In this document: positions 12,849 through 46,345 of the stretch, piece after piece
How positions within the stretch are numbered: the stretch's first letter is position 1
Layout: each line of letters starts with the position of its first letter
Source: Promethearchaeota archaeon
Lineage (GTDB): Archaea > Asgardarchaeota > Lokiarchaeia > Sigyniarchaeales > SOKP01
DNA: 64,000 nt
Direction of reading: 5' to 3'
Assembly: GCA_011364925.1 (NCBI GenBank)
Contig: RDOA01000009.1
Location: 1-64,000 of the forward strand
The notes under the pieces: generated by a model
What the model was told of the DNA's origin: nothing
The model's input: the letters and a program-made list of their open reading frames with translations, nothing else
Database searches by the model: none
Position numbers and translations under genes: made by a program

Positions 12849-13334
12849 TTACTTTTGACCTAGGCTTCTCTTTTTTCGTACAACGCCAACGACTAATCCG
12901 TGGCGTCCGGTGCTCTTAGTTTTTTGGCCTCTTACTTTCAATCCTCGATGGTGTCGAACGCCTTTATAGCTTCGTATCCGTTTCATTCTATCTATATCGC
13001 GTTTCACGGATAATTCGAGTTTATTTCCAATGATGTGTAAATTCTCTCCAGAAACCAAGTCATTCTTTCGGTTTACCATCCAAGCGGGGACTCCATTACC
13101 TACGGGATCTAATATGATTTCTTCAAGCCTATTCAAATCTTTTTCGGGGATAGCCCCCATTCTCATGCTAGGATTGATTTCAGCAATCTTGATTATCGCC
13201 TGAGCGAATCTTCTTCCAATTCCACTTATTTCGGTTAATCCATGTTCTACTTTAGCGTTCCCATCCACTTGGGATCTGAGTTTTCTGAAAAAAACTTTTT
13301 CTCGAAAGTTGCTTGGTCTTGTTGTTAGGCTCAT
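12849..13334 (-). CDS. rps13: 30S ribosomal protein uS13
   Basis: ISGIGRRFA, VPAWMVNR, YKGVRHHRGLKVRGQKTKSTGR. Confidence 0.98.
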   Translation of the reverse strand: MSLTTRPSNFREKVFFRKLRSQVDGNAKVEHGLTEISGIGRRFAQAIIKIAEINPSMRMGAIPEKDLNRLEEIILDPVGNGVPAWMVNRKNDLVSGENLHIIGNKLELSVKRDIDRMKRIRSYKGVRHHRGLKVRGQKTKSTGRHGLVVGVVRKKRSLGQK

Positions 13335-13449
13335 TTTACTGAAAATTTATTACTAAAAGATATAATTCTTAATATAAAATTTAATATTAATTTTATGGTT
13401 TAGGATGAGAGAAGGAATAATTAAGAAAAAATCTGAGAAAGTCGATTAT

Positions 13450-14937
13450 CTAATAGTGAGGATACCTAAGATTTTCGGTTTTTTTCTCATCGATATGTTT
13501 AGTACATTTGGTTTTCTTTGATTTGGCGATCTTTTCAAGGAGTGGTAATCCCGGTTTAACATCAGCTAATGGTTTTGATTCGATTAAATCGTTCTCTATT
13601 AGACTTTGATATAGTTCTTTTCCAGTTTCAGTTCTAATAAGCACGGAATTCCATCCGGAGGGAGATCCTATAGACCCTATTGAAATGTCAGCAGATTCGG
13701 AAGTTAAGTCAAAGCAAACTTCACAGTCTCCTCGAGCTAAATGTCCAATCTCCTTAATTGGAACTGTTAATTCTTCACCAGAATTTGAATAGACAAAAAA
13801 CTTGCCTTTATTGATATTGGTTTTTTTTACATCCTTTACATCTACTTTTAGAGCTTCACAGATTTTTACGAAGGATTCATATGAAAAAGACTCCATGCAA
13901 AAGATCCCAATACGATATTTAATTTGATTTAGCGATGGTATTCCAATGTTGTAAATTGAAGATTTTAGGAGCGCTTGCATCATGCAAGGAACTCCTACAA
14001 CAGCGAGATTTGAAGGACTTTTATTAAGATCTTTTAAAATTTTTAAATTAGGGTTACTTACGTATTTAGTCCCTGTAGTTGAGAGTACATCTTCTTTTTT
14101 CTGAAGGATTATTGGTTCTGGTCTCCAAGGAGTTCTACTCATTTTCGCTCCTAAAGCCTTATCAATATTCTTAGAATCAAAAAGGTAATATAAACATGTG
14201 CTTGTAATTCCTCCATCCTGACAAGTTTCCGCTATTTCGGATAATTTAGTTCGAGCAGAATACGCTTCTAAGTAATGACCTACTTGCGAATAATTTTTTA
14301 TTTCTGAAGCTTGATCTTGGGTCATGTTTAAAACAGTCACCGGCAAATAGCTACGAGGACATACAAAATAACATAGACCACATCTGATACACTTGTCCTC
14401 ATCAATTTTTCCGAAACCATTATATATCTCTAAGCAATTAACGGGACAAATACCGGCGCATAATCCACATCCAGAGCAATTATGAGTTTCAAAAATAGTT
14501 TTAACTGGCTCATAAATTGATTTTACTCTTGACGGATCACCATCAAATTTCACAATATCTAAATCCTTAAAGGAACTTGATTCAGGTGTGTTTTCATCCC
14601 CTTCAATTATATCATAAATTTCATTCACTCCAATTAGCTTCTCGTTTTTCAATAATTCTAATAGGCTTAATGTCTTTCTAATTTCAATAGAATTTTCTTC
14701 GGAGAATTTTCTAATTGTTTTGAAATTATTAGAATTAGATAAATAATTGAAAAGTTTATATTTCAAGAGTTCTTCATCGAACATTTTAAACAACATTTCA
14801 TCATATTGTTCCTCGTTGTAAATCCCAGAACCCAAAATTTCCTTTTTTGCGTCAATTAATACGCGGATTCGATACGAATCTACAGTAATGGCTATTGCAT
14901 TTAAGCCTTCCTTTGTAATTTTAAGTTTAGAACTCAT
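13450..14937 (-). CDS. FrhB/FpoF-like F420-dependent oxidoreductase subunit with ferredoxin domain and extra N-terminal domain
   Basis: Two CxxCxxCxxxCP motifs, QDGGITS, GTKY, VGVPC, IGIFCMESF, CEVC.D...ADISIGSIG. Confidence 0.88.
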   Translation of the reverse strand: MSSKLKITKEGLNAIAITVDSYRIRVLIDAKKEILGSGIYNEEQYDEMLFKMFDEELLKYKLFNYLSNSNNFKTIRKFSEENSIEIRKTLSLLELLKNEKLIGVNEIYDIIEGDENTPESSSFKDLDIVKFDGDPSRVKSIYEPVKTIFETHNCSGCGLCAGICPVNCLEIYNGFGKIDEDKCIRCGLCYFVCPRSYLPVTVLNMTQDQASEIKNYSQVGHYLEAYSARTKLSEIAETCQDGGITSTCLYYLFDSKNIDKALGAKMSRTPWRPEPIILQKKEDVLSTTGTKYVSNPNLKILKDLNKSPSNLAVVGVPCMMQALLKSSIYNIGIPSLNQIKYRIGIFCMESFSYESFVKICEALKVDVKDVKKTNINKGKFFVYSNSGEELTVPIKEIGHLARGDCEVCFDLTSESADISIGSIGSPSGWNSVLIRTETGKELYQSLIENDLIESKPLADVKPGLPLLEKIAKSKKTKCTKHIDEKKTENLRYPHY

Positions 14938-14998
14938 TTTTATTTAACATTAGGTTGTTTTAATATTATAACTAACACTCCGAAAACTCAGGCTGTGA

Positions 14999-15043
14999 GT
15001 TAGTCGCCTTCTAACTACAGTTTTTTAGAAGGGTCATCCTAAT
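14999..15043 (-). promoter_or_regulatory. SECIS element (eukaryote-like AUGA/AA/GA)
   Basis: Minus strand UUAGG-AUGAC-CCUUCUAA-AAAACUGUAG-UUAGAAGG-CGAC-UAA: GA quartet, perfect 8-bp helix, A-rich loop; about 20 nt after the stop of a UGA-containing gene. Confidence 0.88.
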
Positions 15044-15056
15044 TCGGATTAATTTT

Positions 15057-15467
15057 TTATTTTGGTAGAGGAGGGAGTTGTTCTACTTTACGGGTAATAT
15101 CTTCCACTGATTTAATGAACTTTTCGACTTCAGCCGCCGAGCAGAAATATTGTTGAATTCGTTCTTCTTCTAGACCTAAGTGTTTGAAGAGTCTTTTTAA
15201 AAATTTTACATGCTCAAACGTGTTCGTATTTCCATTTCCAAATTCGCACTCACCTTCTTTTCAAGAAATAATGGCTACTCCGTCTGCCCCATTTAAAAAA
15301 CTCTCCATTATTAAATGTATTCCAACTCTTCCCGTACATCTTACTCTAATCAGGTGAAAATTAGTAGAATAAGATTTTCTCGTGGTACCCGTCAGATCAG
15401 CTGCTGAATAACCTCATTTTTCGCAGCCAAAGGCTATAATTTTACGATCTTTTATGTTTTCTGACAT
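15057..15467 (-). CDS. mvhD: Hydrogenase iron-sulfur subunit MvhD/VhuD, selenoprotein (Sec18, Sec69), 136 aa
   Basis: Manual translation MSENIKDRKIIAFGCEKUGYSAADLTG...IRVRCTGRV...GADGVAIISUKEGECEFGNGN...LGLEEERI...SAAE; TGA at 15414-15416 and 15261-15263 fall on conserved Cys positions; not in the ORF track. Confidence 0.93.
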
Positions 15468-15488
15468 AATTTATTTTCTCGTGTTTTT

Positions 15489-17489
15489 CTAATTTTCCAT
15501 TTTAGTAGATTTTTTTGGAATGTTTTCAATTTCAGCTTTACCGATTCCCTTGATTTCAGCTTCGAATTGATTGTCTCGATAGTATTTTAAATCAATTGCC
15601 CTCGCAGGGCATGAGGATACACAAACTCCACATCCTTTACATTTTAGCTCGTTTACTATTGCTATATTGTCTTCACCAACACTAATTGCTTCATACTCAC
15701 ATAGTTTTTCGCATCTATGACAGCCCAAACATAGATTCTCATCAACTTCTGCGATAATTAATTCTTGTGTAATAGTTTTATGGGAAAGTAAGGCTGCAGC
15801 CTTACTTGCAGCTGCTAACGCTGTAGAAACGGAATAAGGAATGTTTTTTGGACCGGCAGCGCTTCCACAGATATAAATACCCATGTTTTTTGTCTCTTGA
15901 GGTTTCAAGCACCCATGGATTTCGGTTAAGAAGCCGTTCGGACCCTTACTTAAACCTAAAACTTCGATTGCCTCCATGGTTCCTTTCGAAGGGTTCATTC
16001 CTGTTGACAATACTACTAGATCTGCTTTTATTTTAGTTAATTCTCCAGTAAGAGAAGAATATGCTCGTACCATTAAATTGTGATTTTCGTCCTCAATAAC
16101 TTCTCCTACTTTTCCCCTAATCATTCTAACATCCGCTTCTCTAATTTTTCTATAATATTCCTCGTTACCTTTATCTGTAGTTCTAATGTCGATATAAAAA
16201 ATTATAACATCCATTTCCGGGTATTCTTGTTTCAATAATTGAGCATTCTTAAGCGCTACATTACAACATACCATAGAGCAGTAGGGATTGGCTTTTAAAT
16301 CTCTAGAACCTACACACTGGATCATGACGACAGTTTTTGGCGTTTTTCCATCAGACATTCTATATATATGGCCCCCAGTTGGTCCTATAGGACTTAACAT
16401 GCTTTCTAGTTCAATTTGAGTGATGACATTTGGGTAGATCCCGTAATTATATTCGTTAGTCTCGATTATTGGATACTCATCATATCCCGTTGCAACAATT
16501 ACAGCACCCACTTTAACTTCGATTGTTTCGGGTTCTTGTTCAAATTTAATAGCTTCCGCAGGACACACGCGTTCTCAACTTTTACAATCAATACAGACAC
16601 TTTTATCCATTACTGCATATTTTGGAACTGCTTGGGGAAACGGAATATAAATCGCTCCTCTTTCGCCAATTCCGTTATAAAATTCATTTGGCACCTTTAT
16701 CGGACAGTTTTCAGTACATAATCCACATCCTGTGCATTTGCTTTCATCAACATACCTTGGATTTTTACGGATTTTAACTTTATAATCACCTGTAATACCA
16801 CTAAACCCGATTACATCACTATACGTCAGTAATGTTATGTTAGGATGCTTCGACGCGTTAACCATTATGGGAGCAAGAACTCATATACCACAATCATCAG
16901 TGGGATATATCCGATCTAATTGAGCCATTTTTCCTCCTACAGTAGCTGCTTTTTCCACCAAATACACTTGTATTCCGTGATCTGCCAAATCTAATGCTGC
17001 GTTCATCCCAGCAATTCCAGCCCCCACGATTAAAGCAGCTCTTTCAACAGGAATCTCTTTATAAGGGACGCTCTCCAATTCTCTTGCTCTGTTTATGCCG
17101 GCTCGAATTAAACGTTTTGCTTTTTCTGTAGCATGTTCCATGTCTCCTTGATGAACAAAAGAGCATTGTTCTCGTAAATTTACCATTTCAAAATAGTACG
17201 GACTTAAACCTGCTTCTTTTAACACGGCTCTATATGTGGGTTCGTGAATCTTAGGAGTGCAAGCTGCAACAACAATTCTGTTCAAACTTAATTCTAATAT
17301 ATCGTTTTTAATGATTTGTTGTCCAGGATCGCTACAAGTAAAATTATTTGTTCTTGCTATAACTACATTAGGTAATGGTTCAACAAAATCTCTAACAGCA
17401 TCGCAATCAAGGTGAGCTCCAATATTAACACCTCATCTACACACATAAACTCCTATTCTTATTTCGTCAATGGTCTGCTTTTCAGACAA
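15489..17489 (-). CDS. hdrA: Heterodisulfide reductase subunit A, selenoprotein (Sec19, Sec203, Sec305), 666 aa
   Basis: Three ORF-track fragments plus an N-terminal piece share one frame, separated only by TGA at 17433-17435 (VYVCRUG), 16881-16883 (DCGIUVLAP) and 16575-16577 (CIDCKSUERVCP); TTG start behind SD AGGTGA; GAGIAG FAD motif, QCVGSRD, CSMVCC. Confidence 0.95.
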
Positions 17490-17723
17490 TTAGTTCACCT
17501 TAAATTAAAACATCTCCATGAAAATTATTTCAGTTTGCTTCGGTTTAATAATTTAATTAAATTCAATTGTGTTTGGAAATTATTGAATTAATTTATTTTT
17601 TCTGGTTAATTTCAACCGTATAATATTTTGTCACCGATTTAGTCCAAAATCGATATAAAAAATCATTTCAATTCTTGAATTCTATCTCATTAACTTTTTT
17701 ATGGAGCTTTCATTACACTTAGT

Positions 17724-17909
17724 ATGGTGGAGCAAGAAGAAAACAAAAAAGAAGAGTTCGCCAGAGAATTTATGACCGAAGAAGGCTTGAAAGGGAAAGC
17801 AAAACGAATAAAAATCATGAAAATTATTGATAAAGTGGGATACGATAAAGATAAAGTTAGAGTGGCATATTTACGGGCAACTATTTCTGAAAGAATTCAC
17901 CATGAATAA
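17724..17909 (+). CDS. Small hypothetical protein
   Basis: 61-aa charged ORF on the same strand as and upstream of serS. Confidence 0.65.
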   Translation: MVEQEENKKEEFAREFMTEEGLKGKAKRIKIMKIIDKVGYDKDKVRVAYLRATISERIHHE

Positions 17910-17988
17910 TTCCACTGTCTTTTAACACATAATTATTATTTTCATAAATTTTTAATATTTTAATTTAATATTTTAAAGAGAGTAAATC

Positions 17989-19272
17989 TTGCGAGACATC
18001 GAAGAATTTAGAAATAATCTGAAAAAAATTATTGAAACGGAAAAACGAAGGTTTAAGGATCCAACTAACGCTGAAAAAGTTTTAGAATACGATAAATTAT
18101 GGAGAAATGTTTTACAAGAAATTCAAGATTTAAGGCAGAAAAGAAACGAGATTTCTAGTCAAATAAATGTATACAAGAAAGAAGGGGACATTGAAAAAAC
18201 TAATCAAGCAATAGCGGATTCAATCCAGATTAAAGAGAAACTAGAAGATTTAGAAAAAAAAAGTGTAGAATACCTAGAAAAAAGAGATACTTTGCGATAC
18301 ACCATCGGAAACGACTTGCACAAGTCCGTTCCAACTGGTGAGACTGAAGAAAGCAATAAAGTCGTGAGAGAATTCGGTAAAATCTCAGAATACGATTTTC
18401 AGCCTATGTCTCATGTAGATTTAATCCAAGAAATAAATGGAGCTGACATAAAGAAAGCCTCAGAAGTGGTAGGATCAAGATTTTATTATCTAAAAGGTGA
18501 TATCGTACTCCTTAATTTAGCACTTCTCAGATTCGCTTTGGACAAATTAATTAGTAAGGGGTATTACCCATTATGGACTCCATTCTTCATCAAGCACGAA
18601 GTTATGAAAGCAGCAGCTGAGTTAGCAGATTTTGAAGAACAATTGTACAAAATTAATGATGAAGATATTTTTATGATTGCTACTTCTGAACAAACTTTAG
18701 CAGCATATCACTATGATGAAATTTTAAATCCAGATTTACTTCCATTAAAGTACGCAGGTATTTCATCGTGTTTTAGAAGAGAAGCCGGCTCACATGGAAA
18801 GGACACATTAGGAATCTTTAGAGTACATCAATTTGAAAAAGTTGAACAGTTTGTTTTCTGTAAACCAGAAAATTCTTGGACGATATTCGAAGAGCTAATA
18901 TCAAATGCAGAAGAGATTTATCGCGAACTGAAAATTCCCTATCGAATTGTAAACATTGCTTCTGGAGAGTTAAACGATAACGCAGCGATGAAATACGATC
19001 TTGAAGCGTGGTTTCCTGCCTCGAATATGTATCGAGAGCTCGTTTCATGCAGCAATTGTTTGGATTACCAAGCTAGAAAATTAAAAGTACGAATAGGGAA
19101 AGTAGGATCAACACAAAAAAAAGAAATTGCTCATACGCTTAATTGCACAGCGATTGCTACAGAACGAACGATTTGCTGCATTTTGGAAAATTATCAAAAT
19201 AAGAATGGAACAGTTTCAGTTCCAGAAGTCCTTCAAAAATATATGAATGGAAAAAAATTTATAAATTTATAA
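17989..19272 (+). CDS. serS: Serine--tRNA ligase
   Basis: ATSEQ, CFRREAGSHGKDTLGIFRVHQFEKVEQF, KYDLEAWFP, ELVSCSNC. Confidence 0.97.
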   Translation: MRDIEEFRNNLKKIIETEKRRFKDPTNAEKVLEYDKLWRNVLQEIQDLRQKRNEISSQINVYKKEGDIEKTNQAIADSIQIKEKLEDLEKKSVEYLEKRDTLRYTIGNDLHKSVPTGETEESNKVVREFGKISEYDFQPMSHVDLIQEINGADIKKASEVVGSRFYYLKGDIVLLNLALLRFALDKLISKGYYPLWTPFFIKHEVMKAAAELADFEEQLYKINDEDIFMIATSEQTLAAYHYDEILNPDLLPLKYAGISSCFRREAGSHGKDTLGIFRVHQFEKVEQFVFCKPENSWTIFEELISNAEEIYRELKIPYRIVNIASGELNDNAAMKYDLEAWFPASNMYRELVSCSNCLDYQARKLKVRIGKVGSTQKKEIAHTLNCTAIATERTICCILENYQNKNGTVSVPEVLQKYMNGKKFINL

Positions 19273-45066: not shown

Positions 45067-45171
45067 CGCAGATGGAGGGATTCGAACCCCCGAGCGCTTA
45101 CGCGCACCGGCTTTAACGGATATAAGGTAATACTCTCGAAGCCGGCGTCTTACCAGCTAGGCTACATCTGC
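45067..45171 (-). tRNA. tRNA-Ser(CGA) with 22-nt intron at 37/38 (45113-45134)
   Basis: Acceptor GCAGATG/CATCTGC plus discriminator G, anticodon stem CCGGC/GCCGG, loop TT-CGA-G[intron]A, long variable arm, GGTTCGAATCC T-arm; no encoded CCA. Confidence 0.93.
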
Positions 45172-45712: not shown

Positions 45713-46345
45713 TTGAACAACGATTATTTTTTTGATGTCAAAAAAAAACGACCTGAAGAATTATTTGAGAGCGTGTTAGATTATTTTAAAGATGAAACCC
45801 TCTTTAATTATGCCACATCTAAATCAATTATGCGTACCCAAAGAAAGATAACATTAAGAACGCTAGAATTGTTAGAGCTTAAAAATAATCAACATTTAAT
45901 TCTTGATGCTGGTTGTGGTCCTGGATTTGTAGCGATGTACTTGGATGAATTAGGCTATAAAACAATTGCTTTAGACTTAATACTGAACTTCCTTAAATTT
46001 TATGAAATTCAAGATTTAAATCCTGTACTTGCTGACATGTGTTATCCTCCATTTCAGCCAGATGTCTTCGATGCCATTATTTCTATTTCAGCTTTACAAT
46101 GGATTTATATACATCTTAATCTAAAGAAAAAGAGAGAGGATTTAATTAATCTTTTTAAAATGTTTTATACGATTCTGAAGCCCAAAGGAAAAGCAGTCTT
46201 TCAATTTTATCCAAAAGATAAAATGGTAATGGATAATATTGGAGATTTGATATCTAAAAACACAAAATTTAACGGAAATTTTGTGATTGACAATCCTAAT
46301 AGCCCTAAAAAAAGAAAGATTTATTTACTCTTAAAAAAAGAGTAA
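45713..46345 (+). CDS. Class I SAM-dependent methyltransferase, Bud23/WBSCR22-like
   Basis: RPE, Q..ITLRTLELL, ILDAGCGPG, FDAIISISALQW, AVFQFYP, VIDNPNSPKKRKIYL. Confidence 0.8.
   Translation: MNNDYFFDVKKKRPEELFESVLDYFKDETLFNYATSKSIMRTQRKITLRTLELLELKNNQHLILDAGCGPGFVAMYLDELGYKTIALDLILNFLKFYEIQDLNPVLADMCYPPFQPDVFDAIISISALQWIYIHLNLKKKREDLINLFKMFYTILKPKGKAVFQFYPKDKMVMDNIGDLISKNTKFNGNFVIDNPNSPKKRKIYLLLKKE

Follow-up and report, generated by a model that had tools for sequence, protein, structure and literature searches.

A type I lokiSECIS within a three-way junction as the probable sole selenocysteine signal of an hdrA–mvhD operon in a Promethearchaeota genome

A single SECIS downstream of five in-frame UGAs

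On the minus strand of a 64-kb stretch of DNA from a Promethearchaeota archaeon (the whole stretch analysed, hereafter the window), we identified an RNA element just downstream of an hdrA–mvhD gene pair. With a probability of roughly 0.85, it is a type I lokiSECIS and the sole selenocysteine (Sec) signal of the hdrA–mvhD operon. Our analysis supports the reading that one SECIS would serve two cistrons, which Mariotti et al. (2016, PMC4989117) had already put forward from sequence analysis; a second study repeated it in 2024 and found the shared SECIS in hundreds of further Asgard genomes (Huang, Xiao and Zhang, PMC11227280). Beyond the text of these papers, our comparisons add two things, namely, a conserved three-way junction that includes the SECIS core and a conserved short spacer before the gene that follows, which encodes a ferredoxin-FrhB-like protein (frhB-like gene).

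The model we infer comprises co-transcription, action across the cistron boundary, a binding partner and a role for the junction. The SECIS RNA would be carried on one transcript with hdrA and mvhD, and its core would presumably be bound by the archaeal elongation factor that carries Sec-tRNA, either directly or via an adaptor. At each of the five UGAs, which are located between 226 and 2398 nt upstream, arriving ribosomes would then insert selenocysteine and not terminate, while the UAG at the end of hdrA would keep the gene's own stop from being recoded. The three-way junction, formed with the lower stem and a side hairpin with a GC-containing loop, would hold the core hairpin.

The coordinates of the genes and of the parts of the element are listed in Table 1. 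A ribosome-binding site, AAGGTGA, ends five bases before the TTG start of hdrA, and the product has Fer4 and Pyr_redox_2 domains (Pfam) and scores 734 bits against the HdrA of a solved structure (9sfi_A). In the alignment, U203 coincides with a non-standard residue (X) of 9sfi_A, and U19 and U305 with Cys. The mvhD product matches FlpD (Pfam, 134.5 bits), and both its U18 and U69 align with X in the VhuD chain 9sfi_K. Three of the five UGAs are thus found at a non-standard residue of the solved HdrA/VhuD and two at a Cys; we take X in the 9sfi structures to be Sec.

An earlier note, made from the letters of the window, had put the hdrA–mvhD gap at 21 nt and the farthest UGA at about 2.4 kb from the element. 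Both figures hold: 21 nt separate the hdrA stop from the mvhD ATG, and the distances from UGA to AUGA are 2398, 1846 and 1540 nt for hdrA and 379 and 226 nt for mvhD. The three genes also have the non-UGA stops that the note had read (TAG, TAA and TAG in the order of transcription). The frhB-like ATG lies 119 nt beyond mvhD and 41 nt 3′ of the junction. Its product has FrhB_FdhB_N, FrhB_FdhB_C and Fer4 domains (Pfam), and an N-terminal extension of some 140 residues is without a Pfam match.

The junction begins 9 nt 3′ of the mvhD stop. Read from the sequence, its 5′ half consists of UCCGAA, UUAG, G, AUGA, C, CCUUCUAA and AAAACUGUAG, and its 3′ half of UUAGAAGG, C, GA, CUAA, CUCA-CAGCC-UGAG, UU and UUCGGA. 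A C·C pair (15033/15006) sits just outside the eight-pair upper stem. All the parts that the earlier note had listed 3′ of mvhD, the outer helix and the side hairpin among them, are present, on the minus strand.

Table 1. Genes of the hdrA–mvhD locus and parts of the SECIS three-way junction (window positions)
Feature	Position	Strand	Details
hdrA	15489..17489	-	666 codons, TTG start, TAG stop
hdrA in-frame UGAs, codons 19, 203, 305	17435-17433, 16883-16881, 16577-16575	-	from the translation
mvhD/vhuD	15057..15467	-	136 codons, ATG start, TAA stop
mvhD in-frame UGAs, codons 18, 69	15416-15414, 15263-15261	-	from the translation
ferredoxin-FrhB-like gene	13450..14937	-	495 codons, no UGA, TAG stop
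Whole SECIS three-way junction (P1 5′ strand to P1 3′ strand)	14979..15048	-	
P1 lower stem, 5′ strand UCCGAA	15043..15048	-	pairs with UUCGGA
P1, 3′ strand UUCGGA	14979..14984	-	
Short canonical kink-turn stem, 5′ strand UUAG	15039..15042	-	pairs with CUAA, 15003-15000
Kink-turn bulge G-A-U and 5′ G-A of the tandem sheared pairs	15034..15038	-	AUGA is 15037-15034
P2, SECIS upper stem and loop	15007..15032	-	8 Watson-Crick pairs, 10-nt apical loop
P2 strands CCUUCUAA/UUAGAAGG	15032-15025 / 15014-15007	-	
Apical loop AAAACUGUAG	15024-15015	-	A-rich, UAG at its end
3′ G-A of the core	15004..15005	-	
CUAA, then P3 side hairpin CUCA-CAGCC-UGAG, then UU	14985..15003	-	
P3 loop CAGCC	14995-14991	-	

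Conservation of the locus and extent of the transcript

Orthologues of mvhD with 75–91% identity occur in 24 of the 24 same-genus genomes searched, and most of them keep two TGA codons; the relatives carry the database label Promethearchaeota or Promethearchaeia. The orthologous hdrA gene stops with TAA or TAG, never with UGA, in all 24–25 loci. In the 24 loci, the hdrA–mvhD gap is about 8–30 nt, as inferred from alignment offsets, and mvhD ends in TAA, in TAG or in the UGA of the AUGA itself. An frhB-like gene is located 3′ of mvhD in 23 of the 24, and a covariance model of the SECIS core (R1, described below) matches once only in each 3.4-kb orthologous locus. In addition, we gathered 80 loci from public assemblies via the frhB-like protein, down to about 55% protein identity. 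Exactly one R1 match, on the same strand and ending 49–138 nt before the frhB-like start, was found in 74 of them.

The window and its closest relatives have a TAA stop at the place of a CAA in the other orthologues, which makes mvhD seven codons shorter. The sequence of the 5′ strand of the lower stem P1 is nevertheless kept there, though non-coding after the early TAA, so that its conservation acts on the RNA and not on the protein.

The position of the element between two genes raises the question of where the transcript ends. It is a serious possibility, only somewhat short of an even chance, that we are dealing with a terminal, 3′-UTR SECIS; the hdrA–mvhD transcript would then end shortly past the junction, and a separate promoter would give rise to a leaderless mRNA for the frhB-like gene. 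The frhB-like ATG is not preceded by a Shine-Dalgarno sequence, while hdrA has its AAGGTGA. Such a promoter is conceivable since the middle of an A/T-rich block that resembles a TATA box, UUAUAAUAUUAAAA, lies about 27 nt upstream of the frhB-like ATG, where the TATA box for a leaderless archaeal mRNA would sit; part of this block, AUUAAAACAAC, is conserved in the closest relatives. Runs of at least five T occur in 10 of the 68 mvhD–frhB-like spacers, and four of 69 frhB-like genes stop with TGA, so UGA is not barred downstream of the element.

A transcript that ends at the junction is, however, at odds with the gene order mvhD–SECIS–frhB-like and the short spacer being kept in those 74 of 80 loci. 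Moreover, runs of at least five T are three times commoner after the frhB-like stop (29/68) than in the spacer, and the window itself has no run beyond T4 in the spacer but a T6 after the frhB-like stop (13431-13426). The T-run comparison points, though not decisively, towards co-transcription, and it is plausible that the element is intercistronic, with the frhB-like gene on the same transcript. Avoidance of UGA stops in the frhB-like gene was considered as a further test of co-transcription and discarded: four in 69 against 13.6% genome-wide is a weak under-representation among genomes that are related. TAG is the frhB-like stop in 42% of the 69 distinct orthologues and in 17.6% of the long frames genome-wide.

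Search for a second SECIS

The covariance model R1 describes the core hairpin and was built from 30 elements of orthologues and paralogues, leaving out the window and its closest relatives (subclade). Run over both strands of the 64-kb window with filters off, it yielded one significant match, at 14999-15041 (minus strand; 45.1 bits, E 1.3e-7); the next best was a partial match of 15.1 bits at 45718. The earlier note, which had found no other convincing SECIS by eye, is borne out by this search. A second SECIS in or upstream of hdrA, which by the note's own account would have refuted its reading, did not turn up: neither in hdrA, nor in the 21-nt gap, nor upstream of hdrA did we find one of the Loki type or of the methanogen type, the known kinds that were searched for. 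The GAA/A pattern of the methanogen type occurs once in the region of the hdrA–mvhD transcript, at 17613, with an upper stem of A–U pairs only, where 0.9 matches are expected by chance; the element itself does not fit this pattern. The SECIS families of Rfam gave no match, either in the window at the gathering threshold or in 13000–18500 at E values up to 10. Standard SECIS tools are stated to miss lokiSECIS in the text of PMC4989117.

These searches bear on the reading that the hdrA UGAs use a separate, unrecognised signal in or near hdrA, by which the mvhD-proximal element would serve mvhD only. In its favour, a reach of 1.5–2.4 kb, past a stop and a restart, is without experimental precedent, and the searches for a second SECIS in hdrA cover known SECIS kinds. 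We nonetheless hold it to be improbable, given the poor runner-up of R1, the single GAA/A match at chance level and the lack of Rfam matches. Mariotti et al. likewise report in their text that RNAz found no other conserved structure (PMC4989117). Furthermore, hdrA has no UGA stop in the 24–25 loci, as expected if the downstream element reaches hdrA, and in Methanococcus maripaludis, SECIS action tolerated UGA-to-SECIS distances of 520–679 nt with similar efficiency (PMC9622424).

Related elements and the selenocysteine machinery

In the whole assembly (3.9 Mb, 33% G+C), R1 has nine matches, and a pattern scan added one, making ten sites. Eight of these are located directly 3′ of ORFs with an in-frame UGA. 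Four follow hdrA–mvhD pairs (on contigs C5 and C38, in the window and at C112:75580), and each pair has one element, after mvhD. The others follow one AhpC/TSA-type Prx-like gene, two paralogues with adjacent UGA-UGA and one gene for a 61-codon membrane protein. Two sites are without an assigned ORF, one at a contig edge (C98) and one with no convincing ORF (C24).

Some of these sites can be described individually. The fourth hdrA–mvhD pair (three UGAs in hdrA and two to three in mvhD) lies in the same contig about 60 kb past the window, and its single SECIS three-way junction (C112:75580-75623, minus strand; locus L085) has P1 CCGAA/UUCGG and P3 CCAU-UAUGUG-AUGG. The paralogous UGA-UGA ORFs (L003 and L089; motifs HADUU and GCUU) are each followed by a lokiSECIS junction (C32:33565-33608, plus strand, and C39:19246-19289, minus strand), and neither has a Pfam match. 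The 61-codon ORF (L005), which has a GGGU motif and is predicted to contain a single membrane helix, also lacks a Pfam match and is followed by a lokiSECIS of 56.8 bits (C41:11705-11748, minus strand). At C24:22105-22148 (plus strand; L088), a lokiSECIS-like junction of 36 bits occurs without a convincing UGA ORF upstream; the nearest ORF, of 40 codons, is zinc-ribbon-like, and its UGA may be a plain stop.

The genome encodes SepSecS (377 bits), PSTK (169 bits) and an aSelB with the aSelB_III domain; as expected, the bacterial SelB winged-helix domain is absent from it. No L7Ae-like candidate for a binding protein occurs among the neighbours of the aSelB and SepSecS genes. A tRNA-Sec was not found in the assembly: the two best matches to Rfam RF01852 turned out to be tRNA-Gly and tRNA-Leu and were rejected. 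This absence weighs little because ARAGORN recovers only 12 tRNAs of any kind there; either the tRNA genes are badly assembled or they are too unusual for ARAGORN. Most of the 12 contain introns, and the assembly is rated 100% complete. The sole Rfam match in the window is a tRNA over 105 nt (45067-45171, minus strand), presumably intron-containing.

That the fold is not a SECIS at all, but terminates transcription, stabilises the RNA or binds a protein for purposes unrelated to recoding, with the UGAs being gene breaks or otherwise read, has in its favour the missing tRNA-Sec and is very improbable. Eight of the ten elements in the genome come just after ORFs whose in-frame UGA corresponds to Sec or Cys, and relatives retain the UGAs (two TGA in most mvhD orthologues). 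SepSecS, PSTK and aSelB are all present, and the hairpins are not followed by a T run. AUGA and the last A of the 3′ core (G/A-A) are invariant in three alignments (A3, A4 and A5), and the A-rich loop is invariant or nearly so.

The SECIS core lies within a three-way junction

The suggestion in the earlier note that an outer helix and a side hairpin make the element a multi-branch RNA is supported by covariation in orthologues and paralogues alike. RNAalifold on 24 orthologues returned three helices: P1 (the lower stem), P2 (the SECIS upper stem) and P3 (the side hairpin). RNAfold on the single sequence found the main stem but paired the flanks differently and missed the junction, which thus appears only with comparative data. 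With the structure fixed, 91% of the cells are paired in 72 orthologues, and shifting the 3′ partners by a single column lowers this to 58%; across our analyses, these values range over 89–91% and 55–59%, respectively. None of 500 shuffles of the 72 orthologues matched any of the observed pairing measures.

All three helices contribute, and structural conservation in relatives, the lack of which the note had held to count against the element, is accompanied by compensatory changes. P1 is paired to 93% in the 72 orthologues, with double changes of GC to AU and of UA to AU. P2 is also paired to 93%, with double changes at all nine pairs, including the position of the basal C·C. P3 is paired to 86%, and at its central pair (60-70), 40 sequences have CG and 23 have UA. 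The P1 sequences of the paralogous mvhD elements are stronger evidence than the orthologues, as judged by comparison of the sequences, because they are quite different yet complementary, e.g., CUCCC/GGGAG, UGUGUU/AACACA, CCCCA/UGGGG, CCUCU/AGAGG, GCUCCC/GGGAGC and CCGAC/GUCGG. An alignment of the mixed paralogue classes with MAFFT (A2) was structurally misaligned; in its place, we used a subset without gaps (A3) and an alignment guided by a model (A4).

Independent measures agree with the alignments. When the 5′ and 3′ flanks come from one and the same element, the median duplex energy is -8.9 kcal/mol, and when they come from unrelated elements, it is -5.5 (Mann-Whitney p 2e-16, a significance that is overstated as the samples are related). 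In 56 of 56 distinct elements (28 in shuffles), a hairpin with 4 bp or more starts no farther than 7 nt from the 3′ GA/AA, and 49 of the 56 have GC in the loop of the side hairpin (7 in shuffles). On this comparative evidence, the outer helix and the side hairpin are real and would form a three-way junction. We also considered whether the apical loop pairs with the loop of the side hairpin or with the linker and rejected this by eye: CUG/CAG can be drawn in the window, not in its nearest relative.

The core reads as a textbook kink-turn sequence pattern, where the short stem opens onto P1 and P3. A kink-turn consists of a short stem closed by G–C, a three-nucleotide N-A-U bulge, tandem G·A/A·G pairs, a non-Watson-Crick pair and a regular helix. 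Kink-turns are binding sites of L7Ae-type proteins, and in k-junctions, a third helix is set upon the kink-turn. In the short canonical stem of our elements, all 56 distinct core alignments have the innermost G–C, which, being invariant, gives no covariation signal; the next pair forms in 41 of 56. Among orthologues, 91% of the cells of this stem are paired. As in a k-junction, the third helix leaves from the non-bulged strand, but it does so after one to four canonical pairs and not directly at the kink.

Outside the genus, three loci from G+C-rich genomes that belong to other families of the same taxonomic order (L030, L031 and L034) carry after mvhD, by eye, a core of the GUGA type; a hairpin, GUCGC-CGCRA-GCGAC, comes next, and a helix closes the structure. 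From such sequences, the layout with three arms seems to reach beyond the genus of the window.

Comparison with known SECIS elements

The organisation of the locus corresponds to that described for Lokiarchaeota in the text of Mariotti et al. (PMC4989117), where VhuD and the preceding HdrA have one lokiSECIS in common, downstream of VhuD, a single element serves as many as six UGAs within about 2 kb, HdrA never ends in UGA, and the pair is most likely on one polycistronic mRNA. The window likewise has one element after vhuD/mvhD and none near hdrA, a very short hdrA–mvhD gap, and an HdrA that has several Sec positions, among them the canonical one near residue 200, and does not stop with UGA. 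The element itself shares with the lokiSECIS, a type I eSECIS-like structure, the AUGA 5′ of the stem, the GA 3′ of it and an A-rich loop ending in AG; its loop (AAAACUGUAG) starts with a run of adenines and ends in G.

The published models, as given in the texts, require a 9-bp stem and a fixed 11-nt apical loop (PMC4989117) or a stem of 7–15 bp with at most two mismatches and a loop of 8–20 nt (PMC11227280). The eight Watson-Crick pairs of the window element together with the basal C·C fit the 9-bp stem, whereas its loop of 10 nt, a length shared by the closest relatives, is one below the 11 nt of the former model and inside the range of the latter. The 3′ core is GA in the window and A-A in the seven closest relatives examined (L007–L013); an AUGA_AA variant of the core is on record (PMC11227280). 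The window further differs from the published arrangement in having a conserved frhB-like gene within 41 nt after the element. Neither side hairpin nor lower stem appears in the text of PMC4989117 and PMC11227280, figures and supplements aside, and in the literature on “SECIS” and “three-way junction”, no description of a side hairpin was found.

The earlier note had called the element eukaryote-type, which is a matter of resemblance in general build and does not extend to the family models. As in the eukaryotic SECIS (RF00031, SECIS_1), there is an AUGA...GA core of tandem sheared G·A pairs and there are unpaired adenines in the loop, and the element lies 3′ of coding sequence and would act at a distance. 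By contrast, the upper stem has nine pairs instead of about 12, the Rfam SECIS models are not matched even at E 10, the mRNA is a prokaryotic, polycistronic one, and a hairpin is inserted on the 3′ side of the would-be internal loop. The eukaryotic SECIS is bound by SBP2, of which no archaeal counterpart is known according to the texts of PMC4989117 and PMC11881835.

The vhuD elements of methanogens are described in the text of PMC4989117 with AUGA, GAC/AAC flanking motifs and an extra stem. The window element resembles the vhuD SECIS of Methanococcales and Methanopyrus in coming after vhuD and serving that gene's two UGAs, and the C of the methanogen GAC motif corresponds to the invariant G–C closing pair of the window-type elements. 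It differs in lacking the GAA/A bulge and the G+C-rich upper stem; moreover, hdrA has its own SECIS in methanogens. When a vhuU SECIS from Loki was tried in M. maripaludis, it showed no activity (21 mU/mg, compared with 22 without SECIS; Peiter et al. 2025, PMC11881835).

Implications for selenocysteine insertion in Asgard archaea

We tentatively propose that the functional Asgard SECIS could be the whole three-way junction, where the side hairpin would be a second recognition site, either for an adaptor or for the elongation factor; on the sequence comparisons, we think this rather less likely than the contrary. If the whole junction is functional, it could explain why the Loki SECIS, presumably a bare hairpin in that experiment, failed in the methanogen, and it might help one element to act on UGAs that lie in a different cistron at a distance of 2.4 kb. 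Should function require the junction, then reporter constructs would be incomplete with the bare hairpin, and so would search models.

The main argument for a eukaryote-like, distance-independent reading of UGA having existed already in Asgard archaea is the SECIS that hdrA and vhuD have in common. The locus described here would add another clean example, in which five UGAs are distributed over 2.4 kb in a fully conserved neighbourhood.
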